Of a stretch of 64,000 nt of DNA, positions 6,067 through 56,243 are shown one piece after another (within the stretch, counting starts at the first letter, position 1; the number at the start of each line of letters is the position of its first letter). A program made the translations under genes and the position numbers. The stretch comes from Candidatus Doudnabacteria bacterium (GTDB taxonomy: Bacteria; Patescibacteriota; Doudnabacteria; UBA920; 2-01-FULL-46-14): NCBI GenBank assembly GCA_041497195.1, contig JBGQGB010000001.1:279376-343375 (forward strand). Reading direction: 5' to 3'. A model generated the notes under the pieces. It worked only from the letters and a program-made list of their open reading frames with translations, did no database searches and was not told the origin of the DNA.

Positions 6067-6095
6067 AGACTCAATTTAGCAAATTTGGCCCAAAC

Positions 6096-6130
6096 AAACA
6101 ACCCCCGCTTTTTATTAGCGGGGGTTGTTT
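6096..6130 (-). terminator. Rho-independent terminator downstream of the large surface-protein gene
   Basis: Perfect 13-bp stem aaacaacccccgc/gcgggggttgttt with T-rich flanks on both strands. Confidence 0.6.
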
Positions 6131-6193
6131 GGTCTTCTACTCTGGCAAGATTTCTTAGGAAATCATATCAGAGCAAGGACTGAAGACTTACTA

Positions 6194-9100
6194 CTATCTG
6201 GACACCGTCACAGATGCAGAAGTCGGGTTCATGCCGCTGACGCGGAAACCATTGAACCACTCTTGAGTGTCGGTAGCAGTTGAAGAACTGTTACCGTAAG
6301 CAAGATCAGACCAGATGAAGTTGTTGGTGGTTGCGCTCTGACCGGAGATACCTGTTGAGGTATTGTTTCCGGTAGTCGCTCCACCAGCAGCATTAGGATA
6401 GACTGCAGTGAATGCGCTGTCGCCAAGCTGGACCGTGGATACGCTGGATCCGCTGACCGAGCCGGAAACGGTTGCTTGCAACTGGTAGGTATTGGACGTA
6501 CCAGCTGGGACGAATCGGAACTGACCGCCGTTAGTGGTGGTCTGAGCCGATGTCGAGAAGAGCAATTTCACATTCGCTACGCTATCTGAGGCCATTGTCG
6601 TGAAGGCGCGCGCGCCATCAGTCGTCAGGTCGACCTGGTTAGAGGTCCCTGGGTTCTCATAGAACTTGTACGAACCGATAGTCAACGTGCCGCTTGGCGT
6701 CGAGGTTGTCACCTGGAAGCTGGCTTTGTAGAAGCCGAGGTCACCCTTCGGATCAGCAGTAACCTTGAACTGATACAGAGTCAAGCCGCTTTGGTTAGCC
6801 AAAGTCGTGCTCGACAAGGAGACTACGCTCCAAGTCGGGACGCTCTTGAAGTCCTGGAACTGTTGACCGGTGAAGGTCCCGGACTTGTTCGCAGCTGACA
6901 ATAAGCTACCTGACGATACGCCCTTGGCGTTGTAATCGTCCTCGGCGACCGTGAAGATAATACCTTGGCCTGAGACCGCGACATTACCGTCGCCGTTGTT
7001 GTTGGTCACCAGGTTGGTATCCACCTTGATACCCAGTTTCTTGCTGCCGCCTTTCGGAATCACGAACTTGCCTTGCAAGCCCTGGAAAGTCACAGCAGTG
7101 GTACTGGTCGGGACAACGGAGGCGATCTGCGTCGAGCCGTCGAACAGGTAGACTGTGGCCACTTGCGTGGTCAGAGTGCCGCCGGTCGAGGCTGTATTAA
7201 CTACGAAGTTAATGTTTTGCAGATCGAGGTCTTCGTTGTTCGACGTAATCAAGAGGTCACCGACATCGACTTTGCTCTGACCACCGGAGAGGAGCTGGCC
7301 TTGAGACGGACTCGAGGCGTCAGCTGCCACCGTCATGGTTCCAGAGGCGACAATCGTCATGACCGCACCGTCGTTGTTGGTCACGCCGGCAGTAACTGAA
7401 GATGCTGTAACAGCACCTGTTGCCACCACTGCGGCGGAACCGTTCAAACCAAACGAGATGGTCTGAGGGTTGGAGCCAGTGACAAAATCACCCTTGAGGG
7501 TCAAAGTCACTTGGGAATTCTTGGCGACTATCACCGGATTCGTCAACGAGATGGTTGACGTAGCCGTTGTCGCGGCAGCGGCGACTGGCTGGACAATCGG
7601 CAACAATTGCGTGCTGCCATTGTACAGAGTCAAGTTTGCCACGTTGGTTTGAATGCTATTGGCCGAGGTTTTGATAACCACGTTGAATTGGGTCACGCGT
7701 ACATCTTCACCCGAGTTAGCCGCATCCAAGATAAAGTTCGCCAAAGTGAATCCGCTCGCACCGACAATCACGGATTGGGCTCCAGGAGTCGCTGAGGTCG
7801 AAACCTTCAACGCAGCAGCCTGGACACTTGCTGTATCCAAACTCACGTCAGAGGTTGGACCAGCAGTGATGCTTTGGTTGGTGACCGTACCCTTTGATGT
7901 CGCCAACGAGCTGGGAGTGCTCAACCGCATCTGGATGGTTGAGGCAGAAGTCACCGAGCTGTTGAGGTTGGCGTTGATCGTGTAGGTATTGGTCCCGACC
8001 GGGAAGATGATCGTGTCAGTGTCAGTCGCGGTATTGGTTGTCGTACTCGCGCTGACCGGACCGCCGATTACATATCCCGCAGGATCAACAATCGTGAAAT
8101 TGGTGATATTGGTCGCGTTCGCACCAGTACCAGAGAAGGTCGCTCCCAAAATCAATTGGGTGACCTGGACCGGTTCCCCTTGGACCGTGGTCTTGAAAGC
8201 ACCGATCGGCTGGTTGTTGACACCAGAGGCGATGTTCAAGTTAGCCAAGACACCTTTCGAGAAGGTGATTGATCCCTTGGAGATGGTCGTGATGTTGCTG
8301 GCATTGGAGAAGAACGGACTGGTCGTGTTCGGATAGGTCGGCAAGATATAGAAGTTGTAAGTCATATCCTGCACCACGATATCCGCCTGCTTATCAACAT
8401 CCAACTCGATATTCCGGCCAGAGCCAGAAACGATATCAAGCGAGAGGTTGAAGTCTTTGTTCGAACCGCGCGCAATCAGAATTGGGGAAGAAAGATTAAA
8501 CACTGCTTCCTTGTTCGTGAGCTGCGAAGCCGTAGCGACGACATTGCCATCGACATAGAGCTTGAGGTTCGCGACATCATTGTCAGCCGAAGTGCCGTTG
8601 TTGTAGAAACGGATGTGGCTGACCTGGACATCATCGGTGCCGCTATTGTTAGTCATCTTGAATGAGGTGACGACATAAGCGGAGGTGCCGACGTTTTGCG
8701 TGGTGGCAGACGGATTTTGGCCGCCTGAGGCCACGGTCACAGTCGCGATTGCCACGTTGCTGTTCATCGTCATGGTGTTGCCCATGATCGGGAACGAAGC
8801 GGACAGGGTCGCGCTGCCAGAGAGGGTCATACCGACGACAGCCAATTGAACCTGATCAGAAGCGTTCAAGGCGGTCGCCATATTGCCAGCCAACATGATG
8901 CTCTTGGTCGTCCCACTAAAGACCGTAATCGCATCATTGAAGGCAGCTTGGTGATTGGTGTTGAGAGATTTCTCATTGCCAATCTGATTGGCCATCCCGA
9001 CTGATGTGTTGGCCGAAACATCCAGCAAGATAACACTGCTGAAGTTGGCGTCAGTCGAAATGCCCATTCTCTGAAGGAGCAACTGACTAACCACGACGTT

Positions 9101-53303: not shown

Positions 53304-54683
53304 TCACTGAATTTGTGTGAGTTGTTCGACCGGATAGGCCGTCGGACAAATTCCAGTAAAACAACTGGTACAAAATTCTTGGGGTTTACTTGCTAGGGCT
53401 TTCAACATTCCTTGGAGACTGAGGTAACCTAAGGTGTTAGCCTGGATATATTTCCGCACCGCCTCCGGCGTCGGCTTACTGTAGGCAATCAGCTCCTCGC
53501 TCGTGGGGGTATCAATCCCCCAAAAGCAAGGACTGATGATCGGCGGAGAGCTGACTCGGAAGTGAACCTCGGTGGCTCCAAACTGCCGAACTAGTCGGAC
53601 GATTTGCCGGCTGGTCGCCCCCCGGACAATCGAATCGTCAACCAAGACTACTCGCTTACCTTTGATTGCGTAACGCAACGGATTGAGTTTCAACCGAATG
53701 GTTTCGTCTCGCTCAGCGTCGTCAGGATTAATGAAGGTCCTGCCGACGTAATGGTTACGCACCAGACCTTGCGGAACGAAGCGAATTCCCAACTGTTGAG
53801 CATACCCGTCTGCTGCCGGAACTCCTCCGTCGGGAACCGGTATGACCACATCTGCGCTCGCGGGTTGCTCCCGGGCGAGCTCGCGACCAAGCTGCTCCCG
53901 AGACTCGTAAACCTGACGACCAAAAACCAAACTATCTGGTCTGGAAAAATATACGTGCTCGAAAATACAACGCGCCAGGTGTGGGGCTTTGGCCAAATAC
54001 TTGGATTGGGGAACGCCTGGACCAATTTCCAAAATTTCTCCTGGTTCCAGTTCCCGAACCCGTTCTGCGCCAATCAGGTCGAGCGCGCAGTCTTCGGAAG
54101 ACAGCACGTACGAGCCTTCATACCGCCCCAGCCACAATGGTCGGAAATGGTAGGGATCACAAACCCCGTAGATTGAATCTCCGTGCATGATGACTAGAGC
54201 AAATGCACCCTCCACCGTGGTCAGCGCATAGTAAAGTGCTTCCGAAAAACTCGAGCAGCCAGAGTGGGCAATTAGCTGGAGTATAACTTCGGAGTCACTC
54301 TCGGTTACAAAGGCAGCTCCTTTTTCTCGCTCCAATTTTTGCCGCAGAAATCCGGCATTAGTCAAGTTTCCGTTGTGGGCAAGTGAGACTTCGCCGTAGA
54401 CTGTATGTGTAGTCAAAGGCTGAGCGTTTTTTTTGCAACTGCTTCCGGCAGTAGAATAGCGCGTGTGGCAGATGCAAAACATGCCATCAAGTCCGTGCAG
54501 CACCTCAGTGGTAAAAACGTCGGCCACAAGACCGGTACCTTTAATTTCACAAAAACCCTTGCCCGCTCCGAAGCCAAAGGTTTGACCAGCGCTTTCCTGG
54601 CCTCTGTGTTGAAGACCAAATAACAACCGTTCGCCGAGTCGCGCAGCACGCGGATGATTGTGCACCCCTGCAATTCCGCACAT
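53304..54683 (-). CDS. purF: Amidophosphoribosyltransferase (Fe-S type)
   Basis: Start at MCGIAGV (N-terminal nucleophile Cys); PRTase motif VVLVDDSIVRGAT; C-terminal Cys cluster; ORF-track N-terminal extension rejected. Confidence 0.9.
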   Translation of the reverse strand: MCGIAGVHNHPRAARLGERLLFGLQHRGQESAGQTFGFGAGKGFCEIKGTGLVADVFTTEVLHGLDGMFCICHTRYSTAGSSCKKNAQPLTTHTVYGEVSLAHNGNLTNAGFLRQKLEREKGAAFVTESDSEVILQLIAHSGCSSFSEALYYALTTVEGAFALVIMHGDSIYGVCDPYHFRPLWLGRYEGSYVLSSEDCALDLIGAERVRELEPGEILEIGPGVPQSKYLAKAPHLARCIFEHVYFSRPDSLVFGRQVYESREQLGRELAREQPASADVVIPVPDGGVPAADGYAQQLGIRFVPQGLVRNHYVGRTFINPDDAERDETIRLKLNPLRYAIKGKRVVLVDDSIVRGATSRQIVRLVRQFGATEVHFRVSSPPIISPCFWGIDTPTSEELIAYSKPTPEAVRKYIQANTLGYLSLQGMLKALASKPQEFCTSCFTGICPTAYPVEQLTQIQ

Positions 54684-55026
54684 TTTTATATTATCCCCCT
54701 TTGAGTTGTCAAGCATTTCATTATAACAGATATAAAAAGAAGGGCGAGAACTACAGTAGTTCCCGCCCAGACACAACACACCAGATATCCGTTAATACCA
54801 AGGGATGACTGCCGCCTCTCCGGGAGAAGGTCAATTGGGTAAAGGGTAAATATCCTGGCTTTTCCACCTTTCGCCGCAGCAGCAAACATATATTCCGCTG
54901 CCGCAGTCTCGGACGGGATGTGTGTCAATCCCGACCTTATGGACAAGCAGATGGCCCCGGCCGCAAGGATTGTTCAGGACAAAAACCTCTGGATGTCTAG
55001 TTGGCCGCAACTCTGGATTCACGGTT

Positions 55027-55266
55027 TCACCTCCTCTCAGGCGAGTCGGGCATCCCGGCCGTGGGTACAAAATAGATACTTCTCTCACGGCGCACGGGAG
55101 GCGCGGCGCCCAGTCTGGGTTTGTCGGCAGGGTTGACCGGGTCGGAAACACGGGACTTCTGTGGTAGTTCAAACTCTACAGGCTCGAATTCTACTCCGGG
55201 CCAAAGTGGACTGACCTCACGCACTCGTGAATTCGGTCCTTTCGGCTGGTAAAATCCTCCGCACAT
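55027..55266 (-). CDS. Hypothetical small ORF with strong SD in GC-rich segment (uncertain)
   Basis: AAGGAGG-N7-ATG; 79 aa MCGGFYQPKG...; its TGA overlaps SD (GAGGAGGTGA) and GTG start of an in-line 64-aa Cys-rich ORF (54831-55022); segment also has ORFs in all three frames, so could equally be noncoding/pseudogenic. Confidence 0.25.
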   Translation of the reverse strand: MCGGFYQPKGPNSRVREVSPLWPGVEFEPVEFELPQKSRVSDPVNPADKPRLGAAPPVRRERSIYFVPTAGMPDSPERR

Positions 55267-55358
55267 ATAGAATCCTCCTTAAGGATTTTTTAGGTTCAAT
55301 CCGGAATCAACTCTTGCTGTCAATTCCAGAACAAAACCCAAAAACGCTTACATAAAAA

Positions 55359-55395
55359 AACCTGACCCTTGCGGGCCAGGTTTTCGTTTTTGATT
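55359..55395. terminator. Bidirectional hairpin terminator
   Basis: aaaaaaacctgacccttgcgggccaggttttcgttttt. Confidence 0.5.
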
Positions 55396-55626
55396 TTTGC
55401 TAATAGGCTATCCCCTTAGGCAAAACAAAATTCACCTGAACCCGTGTCAGAGTCTCGGAAATAGAACCAAAAAGAATTGTTCAGATGTATGTTCATGATA
55501 AAAGGATTATATAAGCACTTTATAAATATGTCAAGAAAACCCGGGCTTTTATTATCGGCTCAAGTCTGATATCCTTTTAAATCAGGGTTTTTCCAGCGAA
55601 GCACGCCTCAAACTGCGACCCAAGCC

Positions 55627-56014
55627 ATGAGAGAGGAGATAACGGCTATCTCTCAAAAACTCCAACGCCTTCTTAACGCATATCTTGACCAAGATATTGA
55701 GCAAGAAAACTACCGCTCCGAGAAGGCAGAGCTTCTCTCCCGTAAGAAGTCGTTGGAGGAGAAAATCGCCAATCTCAAGAGAGGCTCTATCGCTTGGCTC
55801 GAACCAATGCGAGAGTGGATAAAAGATGCCTCATTGCTTACCGAAACGGCAACCAATGACGACCTAAGTCATAAAAAGGTATCCCTCCAAAAAATCTTCG
55901 GCTCGAACCTCTTTCTTAAAAACCGTCTTATTGAATTTATCCCCACGCCACCTTACGCCGCGCTCCGCGCGGCACGCAAAAATTTCTCTGAAAATGAGTT
56001 AAGTTCTTTGTTTG
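55627..56014 (+). pseudogene. C-terminal remnant of a large serine recombinase-like gene abutting tRNA-Lys
   Basis: Heptad coiled-coil sequence ISQKLQRLLNAYLDQDIEQENYRSEKAELLSRKKSLEEKIANLK... resembling the C-terminal coiled coil/tail of large serine recombinases; no catalytic N-terminal domain; no SD; ORF reads antisense through the tRNA. Confidence 0.35.
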
Positions 56015-56087
56015 TGGGTCGGGTGGGAATCGAACCCACGACCGTTGGCTTAAAAGGCCACTGCTCTACCGACTGAGCTACCGACCC
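56015..56087 (-). tRNA. tRNA-Lys (anticodon UUU)
   Basis: Acceptor GGGTCGG/CCGACCC, D-arm GCTC-AGTCGGTA-GAGC, anticodon loop CTTTTAA, T-arm GTGGG-TTCGATT-CCCAC. Confidence 0.8.
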
Positions 56088-56243
56088 ACGCGTGATTTAC
56101 GAGCTGCGATTTGTAAAAACCGCTTTAGCAGTTTTCTTCAATCTCTACTCGAATCCCGCTTTCCCCAAAAAATCTTTTACTTTTCGGGGACCCAATAAAC
56201 ACCTGCTTATTATAAAGGGCTTGCTTAAAAACTTCAATCCTTG

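Follow-up and report, generated by a model that had tools for sequence, protein, structure and literature searches.

A serine-integrase stump at tRNA-Lys and a resident small operon before purF: two probably independent neighbours in a Candidatus Doudnabacteria genome

What lies between purF and the tRNA-Lys gene in a 64,000-nt stretch of a Candidatus Doudnabacteria genome (contig JBGQGB010000001.1, positions 279,376 to 343,375 of the forward strand; hereafter the window, with coordinates counted from its first letter)? The original prediction, made from the letters alone, saw here the scar of a mobile element integrated next to tRNA-Lys, with a GC-rich segment of small, translationally coupled open reading frames (ORFs) as its cargo. 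The analysis reported here leads to a different picture: the interval probably comprises two independent things that abut, a dead stump of a serine integrase beside tRNA-Lys and a resident operon in front of purF. A decayed island with cargo would thus be corrected to a 410-bp integrase stump set against resident DNA. The stump as such is ordinary. The operon is best read as a small, attenuator-controlled one and a lineage-restricted novelty, its attenuator mechanism being plausible from sequence and predicted folding, and the integrase family to which the stump belongs is the most interesting by-product of the analysis.

The stump is the 3' remnant of a large serine recombinase (LSR) gene and occupies 55606–56013 on the plus strand. 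By blastn it is 94.6% identical to one of its two closest relatives (L091) and 90.7% to the other (L092), with homology setting in at window positions 55606–55610, or at 55606–55612 over all comparisons with intact LSRs, and its amino-acid sequence is 95% and 92% identical to the C-termini of the two integrases, both intact at ~490 aa. When intact LSRs were compared with the window by tblastn, only residues 352/354–486, about the last 135 codons with the coiled-coil and tail, were covered, and the catalytic domain with its nucleophilic serine (PF00239) as well as the PF07508 and PF13408 domains were absent from the window in all frames. The rest of the element is missing as well: the 64 kb contain no inverted copy, XRE gene or cargo homolog of the element, and no left attachment site (attL) or tail (T) sequence, the best nhmmer match (E = 0.19) lying inside the stump itself. 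Because homology is limited to residues ~352–486 and the remainder of the element is missing from the window, 55606–56013 is a 5'-truncated pseudogene, and the earlier reading of a 130-aa ORF as an LSR C-terminal tail lacking the catalytic domain was correct. The 149-aa plus-strand ORF described at the time (55627–56076) is present, has no Shine–Dalgarno (SD) site and extends 62 nt into tRNA-Lys(UUU); its ATG at 55627 is a mere methionine codon, common there in intact proteins, and no true start. Having neither a catalytic domain nor an SD site, the stump would be non-functional.

The tRNA-Lys(UUU) gene (56014–56087, minus strand; called by ARAGORN and scoring 75.4 bits with the Rfam tRNA model) begins 4 nt past the projected LSR end, which is the normal geometry of the right attachment site (attR) in the stump's family, and comparison with relatives places the attR-type junction, TTTGTG/GGTCGG, at 56008–56019, where the P arm of the element meets the tRNA 3' end. 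Since the stump occupies the very place where its integrase family has the attR junction, against a tRNA 3' end, an element was once integrated there with this tRNA end as its attachment point, and the stump is its scar. The element would have been a small integrative one, from a widespread family probably of Patescibacteria; it would have entered at the discriminator/CCA end of the tRNA-Lys gene, and a later deletion would have taken all of it but ~410 bp. Searches with the 130 residues before the tRNA returned 331 homologs, some of them in Patescibacteria metagenome-assembled genomes and some with a recombinase zinc-ribbon domain; many end in a 'GIEP'-type sequence, which is the antisense reading of the tRNA T-arm. 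Viral contigs contained no match to the integrase tail, and plasmid and phage collections contained no DNA match. The idea of a mobile-element scar beside tRNA-Lys therefore stands for 55606–56013, and fails for 54690–55270.

What, then, is the DNA between the stump and purF? Beyond an AT-rich spacer (55535–55605), which separates the recombinase deletion breakpoint from a promoter and has no homology to intact elements or to the contig introduced next, all features lie on the minus strand. Another contig, L171, has the same order of promoter, leader, small ORFs, ORF2 homolog, terminator, purF and topA, with a DUF11 gene upstream of it. Identity to the window is 81.6% for topA and 69% for purF, and L171 is the sole genome with a close purF; from these identities and the shared order, L171 belongs to a related organism. 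In the window, the block opens with a sigma-70 promoter that matches the consensus at 12 of 12 positions (TTGACA-17-TATAAT, 55506–55534; -35 hexamer kept in L171) and continues with a 26-codon leader ORF, MNIHLNNSFWFYFRDSDTGSGEFCFA (55416–55496; start and stop kept in L171), an intrinsic terminator (T1, 55354–55385), a long hairpin (P4, 55344–55287) followed by a small hairpin that holds an SD site (55285–55273), ORF1 (79 aa, 55027–55266), ORF2 (64 aa, 54831–55022) and a second intrinsic terminator (T2, 54742–54768), which marks the end of the small operon and is kept in L171 with stem changes compatible with pairing. Next comes purF's own promoter, an extended -10 element (TGTTATAAT, 54720–54728) read from the sequence and the L171 alignment, and then purF itself (amidophosphoribosyltransferase, 53304–54683). 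The first promoter, the leader ORF, T2 and the purF promoter had not been noted before.

The leader RNA is the part of this block that suggests regulation. It is ~235 nt long and, with T1 and the SD site and ATG behind it, ~90% identical between the window and L171, as against ~50% for ORF2 and 69% for PurF at the protein level. The leader ORF starts ~3 nt past the predicted transcription start and is MKTHLNNWFWFYFRTAAGSGEFRFA in L171, with 25 codons versus 26 in the window (an indel of 3 nt); its run of aromatic residues is FWFYF in the window and WFWFYF in L171. Four segments of the leader are predicted to pair in alternative ways. Segment 1 (CAUCUGAAC, 55487–55479) and segment 2 (GGGUUCAGGUG, 55443–55433) form hairpin P1 (55433–55487), identical in L171; segment 3 (CCUGGCCCG) and segment 4 (GGGUCAGG), followed by a U7 tract, form T1. 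The computed duplex energies are -10.6 kcal/mol for 1:2, -14.7 for 2:3 and -22.0 for 3:4, segment 2 nearly duplicates segment 4, and when segment 1 is masked and segment 4 left out, 2:3, the antiterminator, becomes the fold of minimum energy in both genomes. The T1 hairpin, CCTGGCCCGCAAGGGTCAGG at 55385–55354, had been recognized earlier as a bidirectional terminator; it stands between an A-run and a T-run and folds as a 13-bp stem. The leader folds strongly (z = -5.55), and in P4 every pair is kept in both genomes, with one compensatory change and five one-sided compatible ones.

These elements would fit a leader-peptide attenuator. Transcription from the leader promoter would by default end early, at T1, and read-through would need segment 1 to be kept off segment 2, letting segment 2 pair with segment 3. 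Were a ribosome to pause on the FWFYF run while translating the leader ORF, it could have this effect; ORF2 would then be translated by termination–reinitiation from the upstream ORF. We prefer this version of the operon's control, though only tentatively. It resembles the trpL, pheL, hisL and thrL attenuators in that an ORF with the aromatic run F-W-F-Y-F overlaps segment 1 of a set of 1:2, 2:3 and 3:4 hairpins with a terminator, and in that His_leader (24.1 bits vs a threshold of 49), Phe_leader (21.8 vs 55) and Thr_leader (18.7 vs 55) are the top sub-threshold Rfam matches of the leader. It departs from them in that these scores lie far below the gathering thresholds, so that the likeness is one of functional analogy and not of family membership. 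Other departures from known leader-peptide attenuators are that the leader ORF, lacking an SD site, would need a leaderless type of initiation, that the regulated genes encode a mini-protein beside purF and are not amino-acid biosynthesis genes, and that the host is probably of Patescibacteria type, to judge by the annotation of the integrase's relatives.

Several observations weigh against an attenuator-controlled operon of this kind. Neither genome has an SD site for the leader ORF, and the predicted 5' untranslated region differs between them (~3 nt in the window vs ~5–6 nt in L171). Third positions are not favoured among the substitutions in the leader ORF, one of which is synonymous and the rest not, and it may be the RNA alone that is conserved here. 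None of the genes that follow (ORF1, ORF2 and then purF) is an aromatic amino-acid gene; ORF2 has a codon usage unlike that of the host, and its family has two members. T1 could act constitutively, ending a small RNA or, in L171, the gene upstream. As the unit is known from only two genomes, covariation support is thin: P4 offers one compensatory pair, and T2 offers changes compatible with pairing.

Could the leader instead be a metabolite- or protein-binding switch, in which a ligand stabilizes P1 and so frees the terminator, the 26-codon ORF being incidental? The lack of a codon pattern in a leader conserved at the nucleotide level, the missing SD site and the strong fold would all suit such a switch equally well, and its layout of P1, antiterminator and terminator is equally typical of OFF riboswitches. 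However, no Rfam model scores close to its threshold. Only tRNAs reach the gathering threshold anywhere in the window, and no riboswitch aptamer model is matched by the leader. P1 encloses a short stretch, part of which varies (the 3-nt indel and several substitutions), and the sole two-base change within the P1 region, UCU to UGG, creates a further Trp codon. Moreover, a covariance model of the leader, run over 0.67 Mb of related contigs, found just the two known copies and no further ones. On balance, a ligand-binding switch is unlikely. Viral contigs yielded no match to the leader DNA pattern. A separate candidate, a structured-RNA gene within 54780–55270, was rejected: the Rfam scan of this interval gave nothing at the gathering threshold or at E ≤ 1, and the fold scores there were only z = -3.0 and -2.3 for the two strands.

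The stretch from the promoter to T1 might also be a gene in its own right of ~145 nt, for a small RNA or for a 26-aa peptide translated without a leader; its transcription would end at T1 every time, and ORF1 and ORF2 would be expressed by leak-through or from an unrecognised promoter. The perfect promoter and strong terminator do bracket a compact and highly conserved unit, and the nucleotide-level conservation and missing SD site would suit such a gene just as well. On the other hand, conservation does not break at T1 and continues through P4 to the SD site and ATG of ORF1, no promoter-like site was found between T1 and ORF1, and the near-duplication of segment 4 by segment 2 is a hallmark of antiterminators. 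We consider a separate gene distinctly unlikely, and a leader-peptide attenuator, which joins the leader to the ORFs behind it, remains the version that we prefer.

If the leader and the small ORFs form one operon, did they arrive as cargo of the integrase element? In favour of the GC-rich segment, possibly with purF, having come from a higher-GC donor in this way, the segment physically adjoins the stump, ORF1 and ORF2 lack host-like codon usage, and purF looks foreign. In a search of 5.8 billion protein clusters, PurF has one close relative, that of L171 (positions 1558–2940, 69%); the next matches are ~55–56% identical and are annotated as Acidobacteriota. A purF synteny scan of GTDB likewise returned only Acidobacteriota-type loci, at 50–55%, whose flanks gave nothing in a six-frame comparison with the segment, and a search for synteny in metagenome contigs via a 178-aa neighbour also gave nothing. 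However, L171 has the same block beside topA, and the ~570 bp of contig upstream of its leader contain neither a recombinase nor a tRNA. Homology between the window and L171 starts at the -35 hexamer of the leader promoter, and homology to the elements ends at 55606, 70 nt from it. In addition, the segment shares nothing with the cargo of 80 related elements, and the attL-type T sequence, inverted copy, XRE gene and every other part of an element are absent from the 64 kb.

The compositional argument does not hold either. The GC content of 54690–55270, claimed to be clearly higher than its surroundings, is 0.530, compared with a mean of 0.502 (standard deviation 0.036) for 581-nt windows (z = 0.78), and 26% of such windows are as GC-rich or more; ORF1 and ORF2 together reach 0.555 (z = 1.3), as do 9% of windows, and purF has 0.527 with a peak of 0.605. 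The segment looks GC-rich because the adjoining 55270–55626, which includes the leader, is AT-rich (0.395). The deviation from the host that an island or its cargo would be expected to have is therefore not seen for 54690–55270, and descent of the segment from a higher-GC donor as cargo of the element is very improbable. The nearest other PurF proteins, at ~55–56% and from Acidobacteriota, indicate that purF and its unit were probably acquired once, by the common ancestor of both organisms. The purF unit may be called foreign DNA in a loose sense, and it probably pre-dates the integrase stump and is unrelated to it. The acquisition of purF would probably be an old horizontal one, in a lineage not expected to make purines.

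Two further observations concern purF. The source annotation begins the gene at an upstream ATG (window 54684–54716), giving a 470-aa protein that starts MLDNSKGDNIK-MCGI. This ATG is out of frame in L171, so that the true start is MCGI (MCGIAGV by ORF reading and homologs), as expected for an amidotransferase with an N-terminal cysteine. In addition, T2, the purF promoter and the 5' untranslated region (54686–54768 vs L171 1475–1560) are ~90% identical, beyond what a plain promoter needs, and this block could hold an operator or a further regulatory RNA element.

The small ORFs themselves raise the question of whether they are genes at all. As the original prediction described, all three minus-strand frames carry ORFs here; AAGGAGG (55280–55274) is followed after 7 nt by the ATG (55266) of ORF1, the TGA of ORF1 lies inside GAGAGGAGGTGAaaccGTG, and a GTG at 55022 with its own GGAGG SD opens ORF2, which contains CGSGIYVCCCGERW. 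For ORF2, an exhaustive phmmer search with the extended frame as query against 1.84 billion representatives found one homolog, P0122 (99 aa, E = 1.1e-11), encoded on L171 at the same position; a second match, P0123, is a low-complexity repeat and was discarded. The conserved domain begins five residues past the GTG and ends in a conserved IYPLPN/IFPLPG followed by the stop, and dN/dS between ORF2 and P0122 is ~0.32 over 57 codons. An AlphaFold (AF2) model from the two sequences is confident (predicted local distance difference test, pLDDT, 85.8; predicted template modelling score, pTM, 0.67), with five strands and a short helix, and H10, H28, H35, C40, C47 and C49 are among the invariant residues. 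Pfam and NCBIfam hold no family for ORF1, ORF2 or P0122, the ORF2 model has no match to a known fold, and viral contigs have no ORF2 match. ORF2 is, with high probability, a real gene, and our best guess is that it encodes a small metal-binding protein. With ~60 aa, a beta-rich fold and clustered invariant Cys and His it is like zinc-finger micro-proteins such as the CPxCG-related HVO_0758; unlike them, it has no CPxCG and carries a motif of its own, HPV-x-DCG-x-GIY-x-C-x-CG. An apparent N-terminal similarity between a 113-aa extension of ORF2 and P0122 was set aside, being unsupported by the DNA alignment or by tblastn.

ORF1 behaves differently. Its AAGGAGG-N7-ATG start is kept in L171 and its protein sequence is not: the same SD and ATG there open a 15-codon ORF, followed by one of 54 codons. 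The region (a GC-rich stretch of ~240 nt) cannot be aligned with L171 and shows no similarity in any frame; a word-indexed protein search with ORF1 and ORF2 returned ORF1 itself only, and its codon margin (-0.064 vs 0.148 ± 0.072 for real 80-codon chunks) gives no host-like signal. Stop/start coupling to ORF2 is nevertheless present in both genomes, as TGA-N4-GTG in the window and TAATG in L171. What is kept thus appears to be the act of translation, with coupling through a spacer that is free to vary. The suggestion of a live, small Cys-rich ORF therefore holds for ORF2, which is conserved, folds confidently and has invariant His and Cys, and not for its partner, ORF1, which is not conserved. 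As to the third frame, the source annotation calls a 67-aa gene at 54686–54889 (a 67- to 86-aa ORF) that runs across T2, the purF promoter and the last part of ORF2; this ORF is probably spurious. ORF2 itself is not called on long contigs.

It might be thought that ORF1 and ORF2 are the frameshifted wreck of one longer gene, given ORFs in three frames, the missing coding signal of ORF1 and the different split, 15 aa plus 54 aa, of the same stretch in L171. However, the ORF2 domain starts just behind its own SD-led GTG and runs to a conserved C-terminus and stop, ORF2 is predicted to fold confidently alone, and the SD and ATG of ORF1 and the stop/start coupling are maintained in both genomes. 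The all-frame search proposed earlier for a frameshifted homolog also found none, whether in L171, in the Acidobacteriota purF flanks or in databases. A wreck is thus scarcely probable, and a coupled pair of which ORF2 is the real gene agrees better with these data. That ORF2, with ORF1, is the precursor locus of a ribosomally synthesized and post-translationally modified peptide, as its small, Cys-rich product and the two coupled small ORFs had suggested, is barely credible, as the genes called within ±10 kb include no modifying enzyme, protease or exporter, the predicted structure is a compact beta fold of five strands and not a leader–core peptide, and conservation spans the whole ORF2 domain.

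The stump also led to its intact relatives. A scan of metagenome contigs with an alignment of stump homologs gave 80 loci (L091–L170), which with L008–L010 make up the family set; a full-length reading frame of ~486 aa is present in 58 of the 83 loci by tblastn. The alternative that the integrase tail is a recurrent short protein, raised by the 120 of 331 matches listed, all ≤226 aa, was rejected on this count. The short homologs are due to short contigs, to the start choice of the gene caller (L010) and to real decay (L008 and L009). In L010, the frame is open from 4411 without an obvious start codon, and the gene caller gave only the last 217 aa; protein databases under-represent this integrase family as full-length genes. 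The intact relatives L092 and L096 carry PF00239 (Resolvase), PF07508 (Recombinase) and PF13408 (Zn_ribbon_recom), and intact relatives match the A118 and SPbeta integrase structures by sequence. The family is probably from Patescibacteria.

Classically, it is tyrosine integrases and not serine integrases that target the 3' ends of tRNA genes. In this family, 48 of the 73 loci with enough downstream sequence have an opposite-strand tRNA gene that starts between -25 and +30 nt from the projected LSR end, and in most of the 48 the start is 2–4 nt past that end; the targets cover 12 amino-acid identities and 24 anticodons. Among the other 25 loci, 18 still have a T-loop-like motif in the flank. 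The right flanks of L100 (~6555–6640), L112 (~6079–6170), L120 and L138 resemble tRNA 3' halves with acceptor and T-arm, although ARAGORN calls none; they may be interrupted, intron-containing or degraded tRNA genes. The repeat of the relatives ends at TGGTG, TGGAG or TGGCT, the reverse complement of the discriminator plus CCA.

The architecture of these elements is unusual. Of the 42 loci in which the gene is full-length and 1 kb or more of upstream sequence is available, 36 have an inverted copy of the last 111–167 nt of the integrase gene, with 76–100% identity, which runs on into a conserved 'native' tail, LY..R.YF..N-stop. This is an inverted second complete phage-type attachment site (attP), consisting of the gene end, the native tail and up to ~200 nt downstream, and it gives rise to nested inverted repeats; examples are L142 (2668–8387), L147 (2440–8411), L166 (615–8390) and L096 (1350–4027). 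The attP copies are often 99–100% identical within an element and divergent between elements, which suggests ongoing inversion or gene conversion. In L142, L147 and L166, attL (host/tail), the internal complete attP and attR (gene end/tRNA) can be read in one contig and share a core of TGGTG, GAG or GTG, which is the reverse complement of a tRNA end made up of the final acceptor base, the discriminator and the beginning of CCA. A TCGAAC T-loop motif stands at position 14 of the tRNA arm, that is, of the bacterial attachment site (attB), and a look-alike at position 18 of the attP tail arm; of 18 loci for which both flanks are available, 16 have this offset of +4. The sequence that encodes the C-terminus of the integrase also serves as the P' arm. 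In L149 (1–3793), a 1713-nt centre made of the integrase body, with a native tail, lies between 1040-nt arms that are 100% complementary and reach both contig ends; it may be a free form, a flip-flop segment or an assembly effect caused by the repeat. The cargo varies. A small XRE-type helix-turn-helix gene, divergent from the integrase, recurs in L008, L010, L092, L096 and L100; further cargo comprises a DUF3800 protein, an HNH endonuclease that contains homing-endonuclease repeats, and a gene in which a unit of ~312–396 nt is repeated six times in tandem (L096 1616–2287; L092 214–960 and 990–1196; L147 3549–5302).

Compared with phage-type large serine integrases (A118/LI, SPbeta, phiC31, Bxb1), the relatives are alike in their resolvase, recombinase, zinc-ribbon and C-terminal coiled-coil parts and in that attL, attP and attR share a core of only 3–5 nt. 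For LI integrase, the motif for the zinc-ribbon domain is 5 bp further out in attP than in attB (PMC3783163), and the stump's family comes close to this, the distance of its outer half-site motif from the core being 4 nt greater in the attP arm than in the attB arm. Unlike those integrases, the family targets the discriminator/CCA end of many tRNA genes, has its attP inside the 3' end of the integrase gene and holds a second, inverted attP in its elements; the copy in the window, moreover, retains the last ~135 codons only. As small, cargo-carrying elements at tRNA genes, its members are also like tycheposons and tRNA-targeting islands. According to the passages searched, tycheposons occur in marine cyanobacteria, where a minority carry an LSR and 910 of 937 use tyrosine recombinases, and an inverted spare attP is not described in those passages (10.1101/2020.12.28.424599); the likeness is one of description, with no sequence relation seen. 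No description of such an integrase family was found in the literature searched, the coverage of which is incomplete.

The insertion of large DNA relies mainly on serine integrases as tools. If its reading is true, a family with a short, universal and well-defined natural target and an unusual double-attP architecture, in which all three attachment sites can be read in single contigs, would be of interest both for practice and for mechanism. How ultra-small bacteria regulate their genes has hardly been explored, and a translation-coupled attenuator beside an acquired purF, set over a metal-type mini-protein, would if true provide a concrete and testable example, known from two genomes. The boldest combination, in which an undescribed aromatic-codon attenuator gates a new His3/Cys3 mini-protein family alongside a horizontally acquired purF, and undescribed serine integrases use the T-arm/CCA end of essentially any tRNA gene as attB, their own gene 3' end as attP and a spare inverted attP, is possible though doubtful.

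Some minor observations concern the surroundings of the locus. The called genes within ±10 kb include purF, topA, a gene with an F420_ligase domain, a membrane protein gene, dnaJ, dnaK, grpE and hrcA. Seven contigs contain ORF1, and 54600–56200 is 100% identical in all of them, which makes strain variation uninformative here. Finally, a promoter-like TTGAAG-17-TATAAT lies on the minus strand at 56209–56237, ~120 nt upstream of tRNA-Lys, and is likely the promoter of the tRNA gene.

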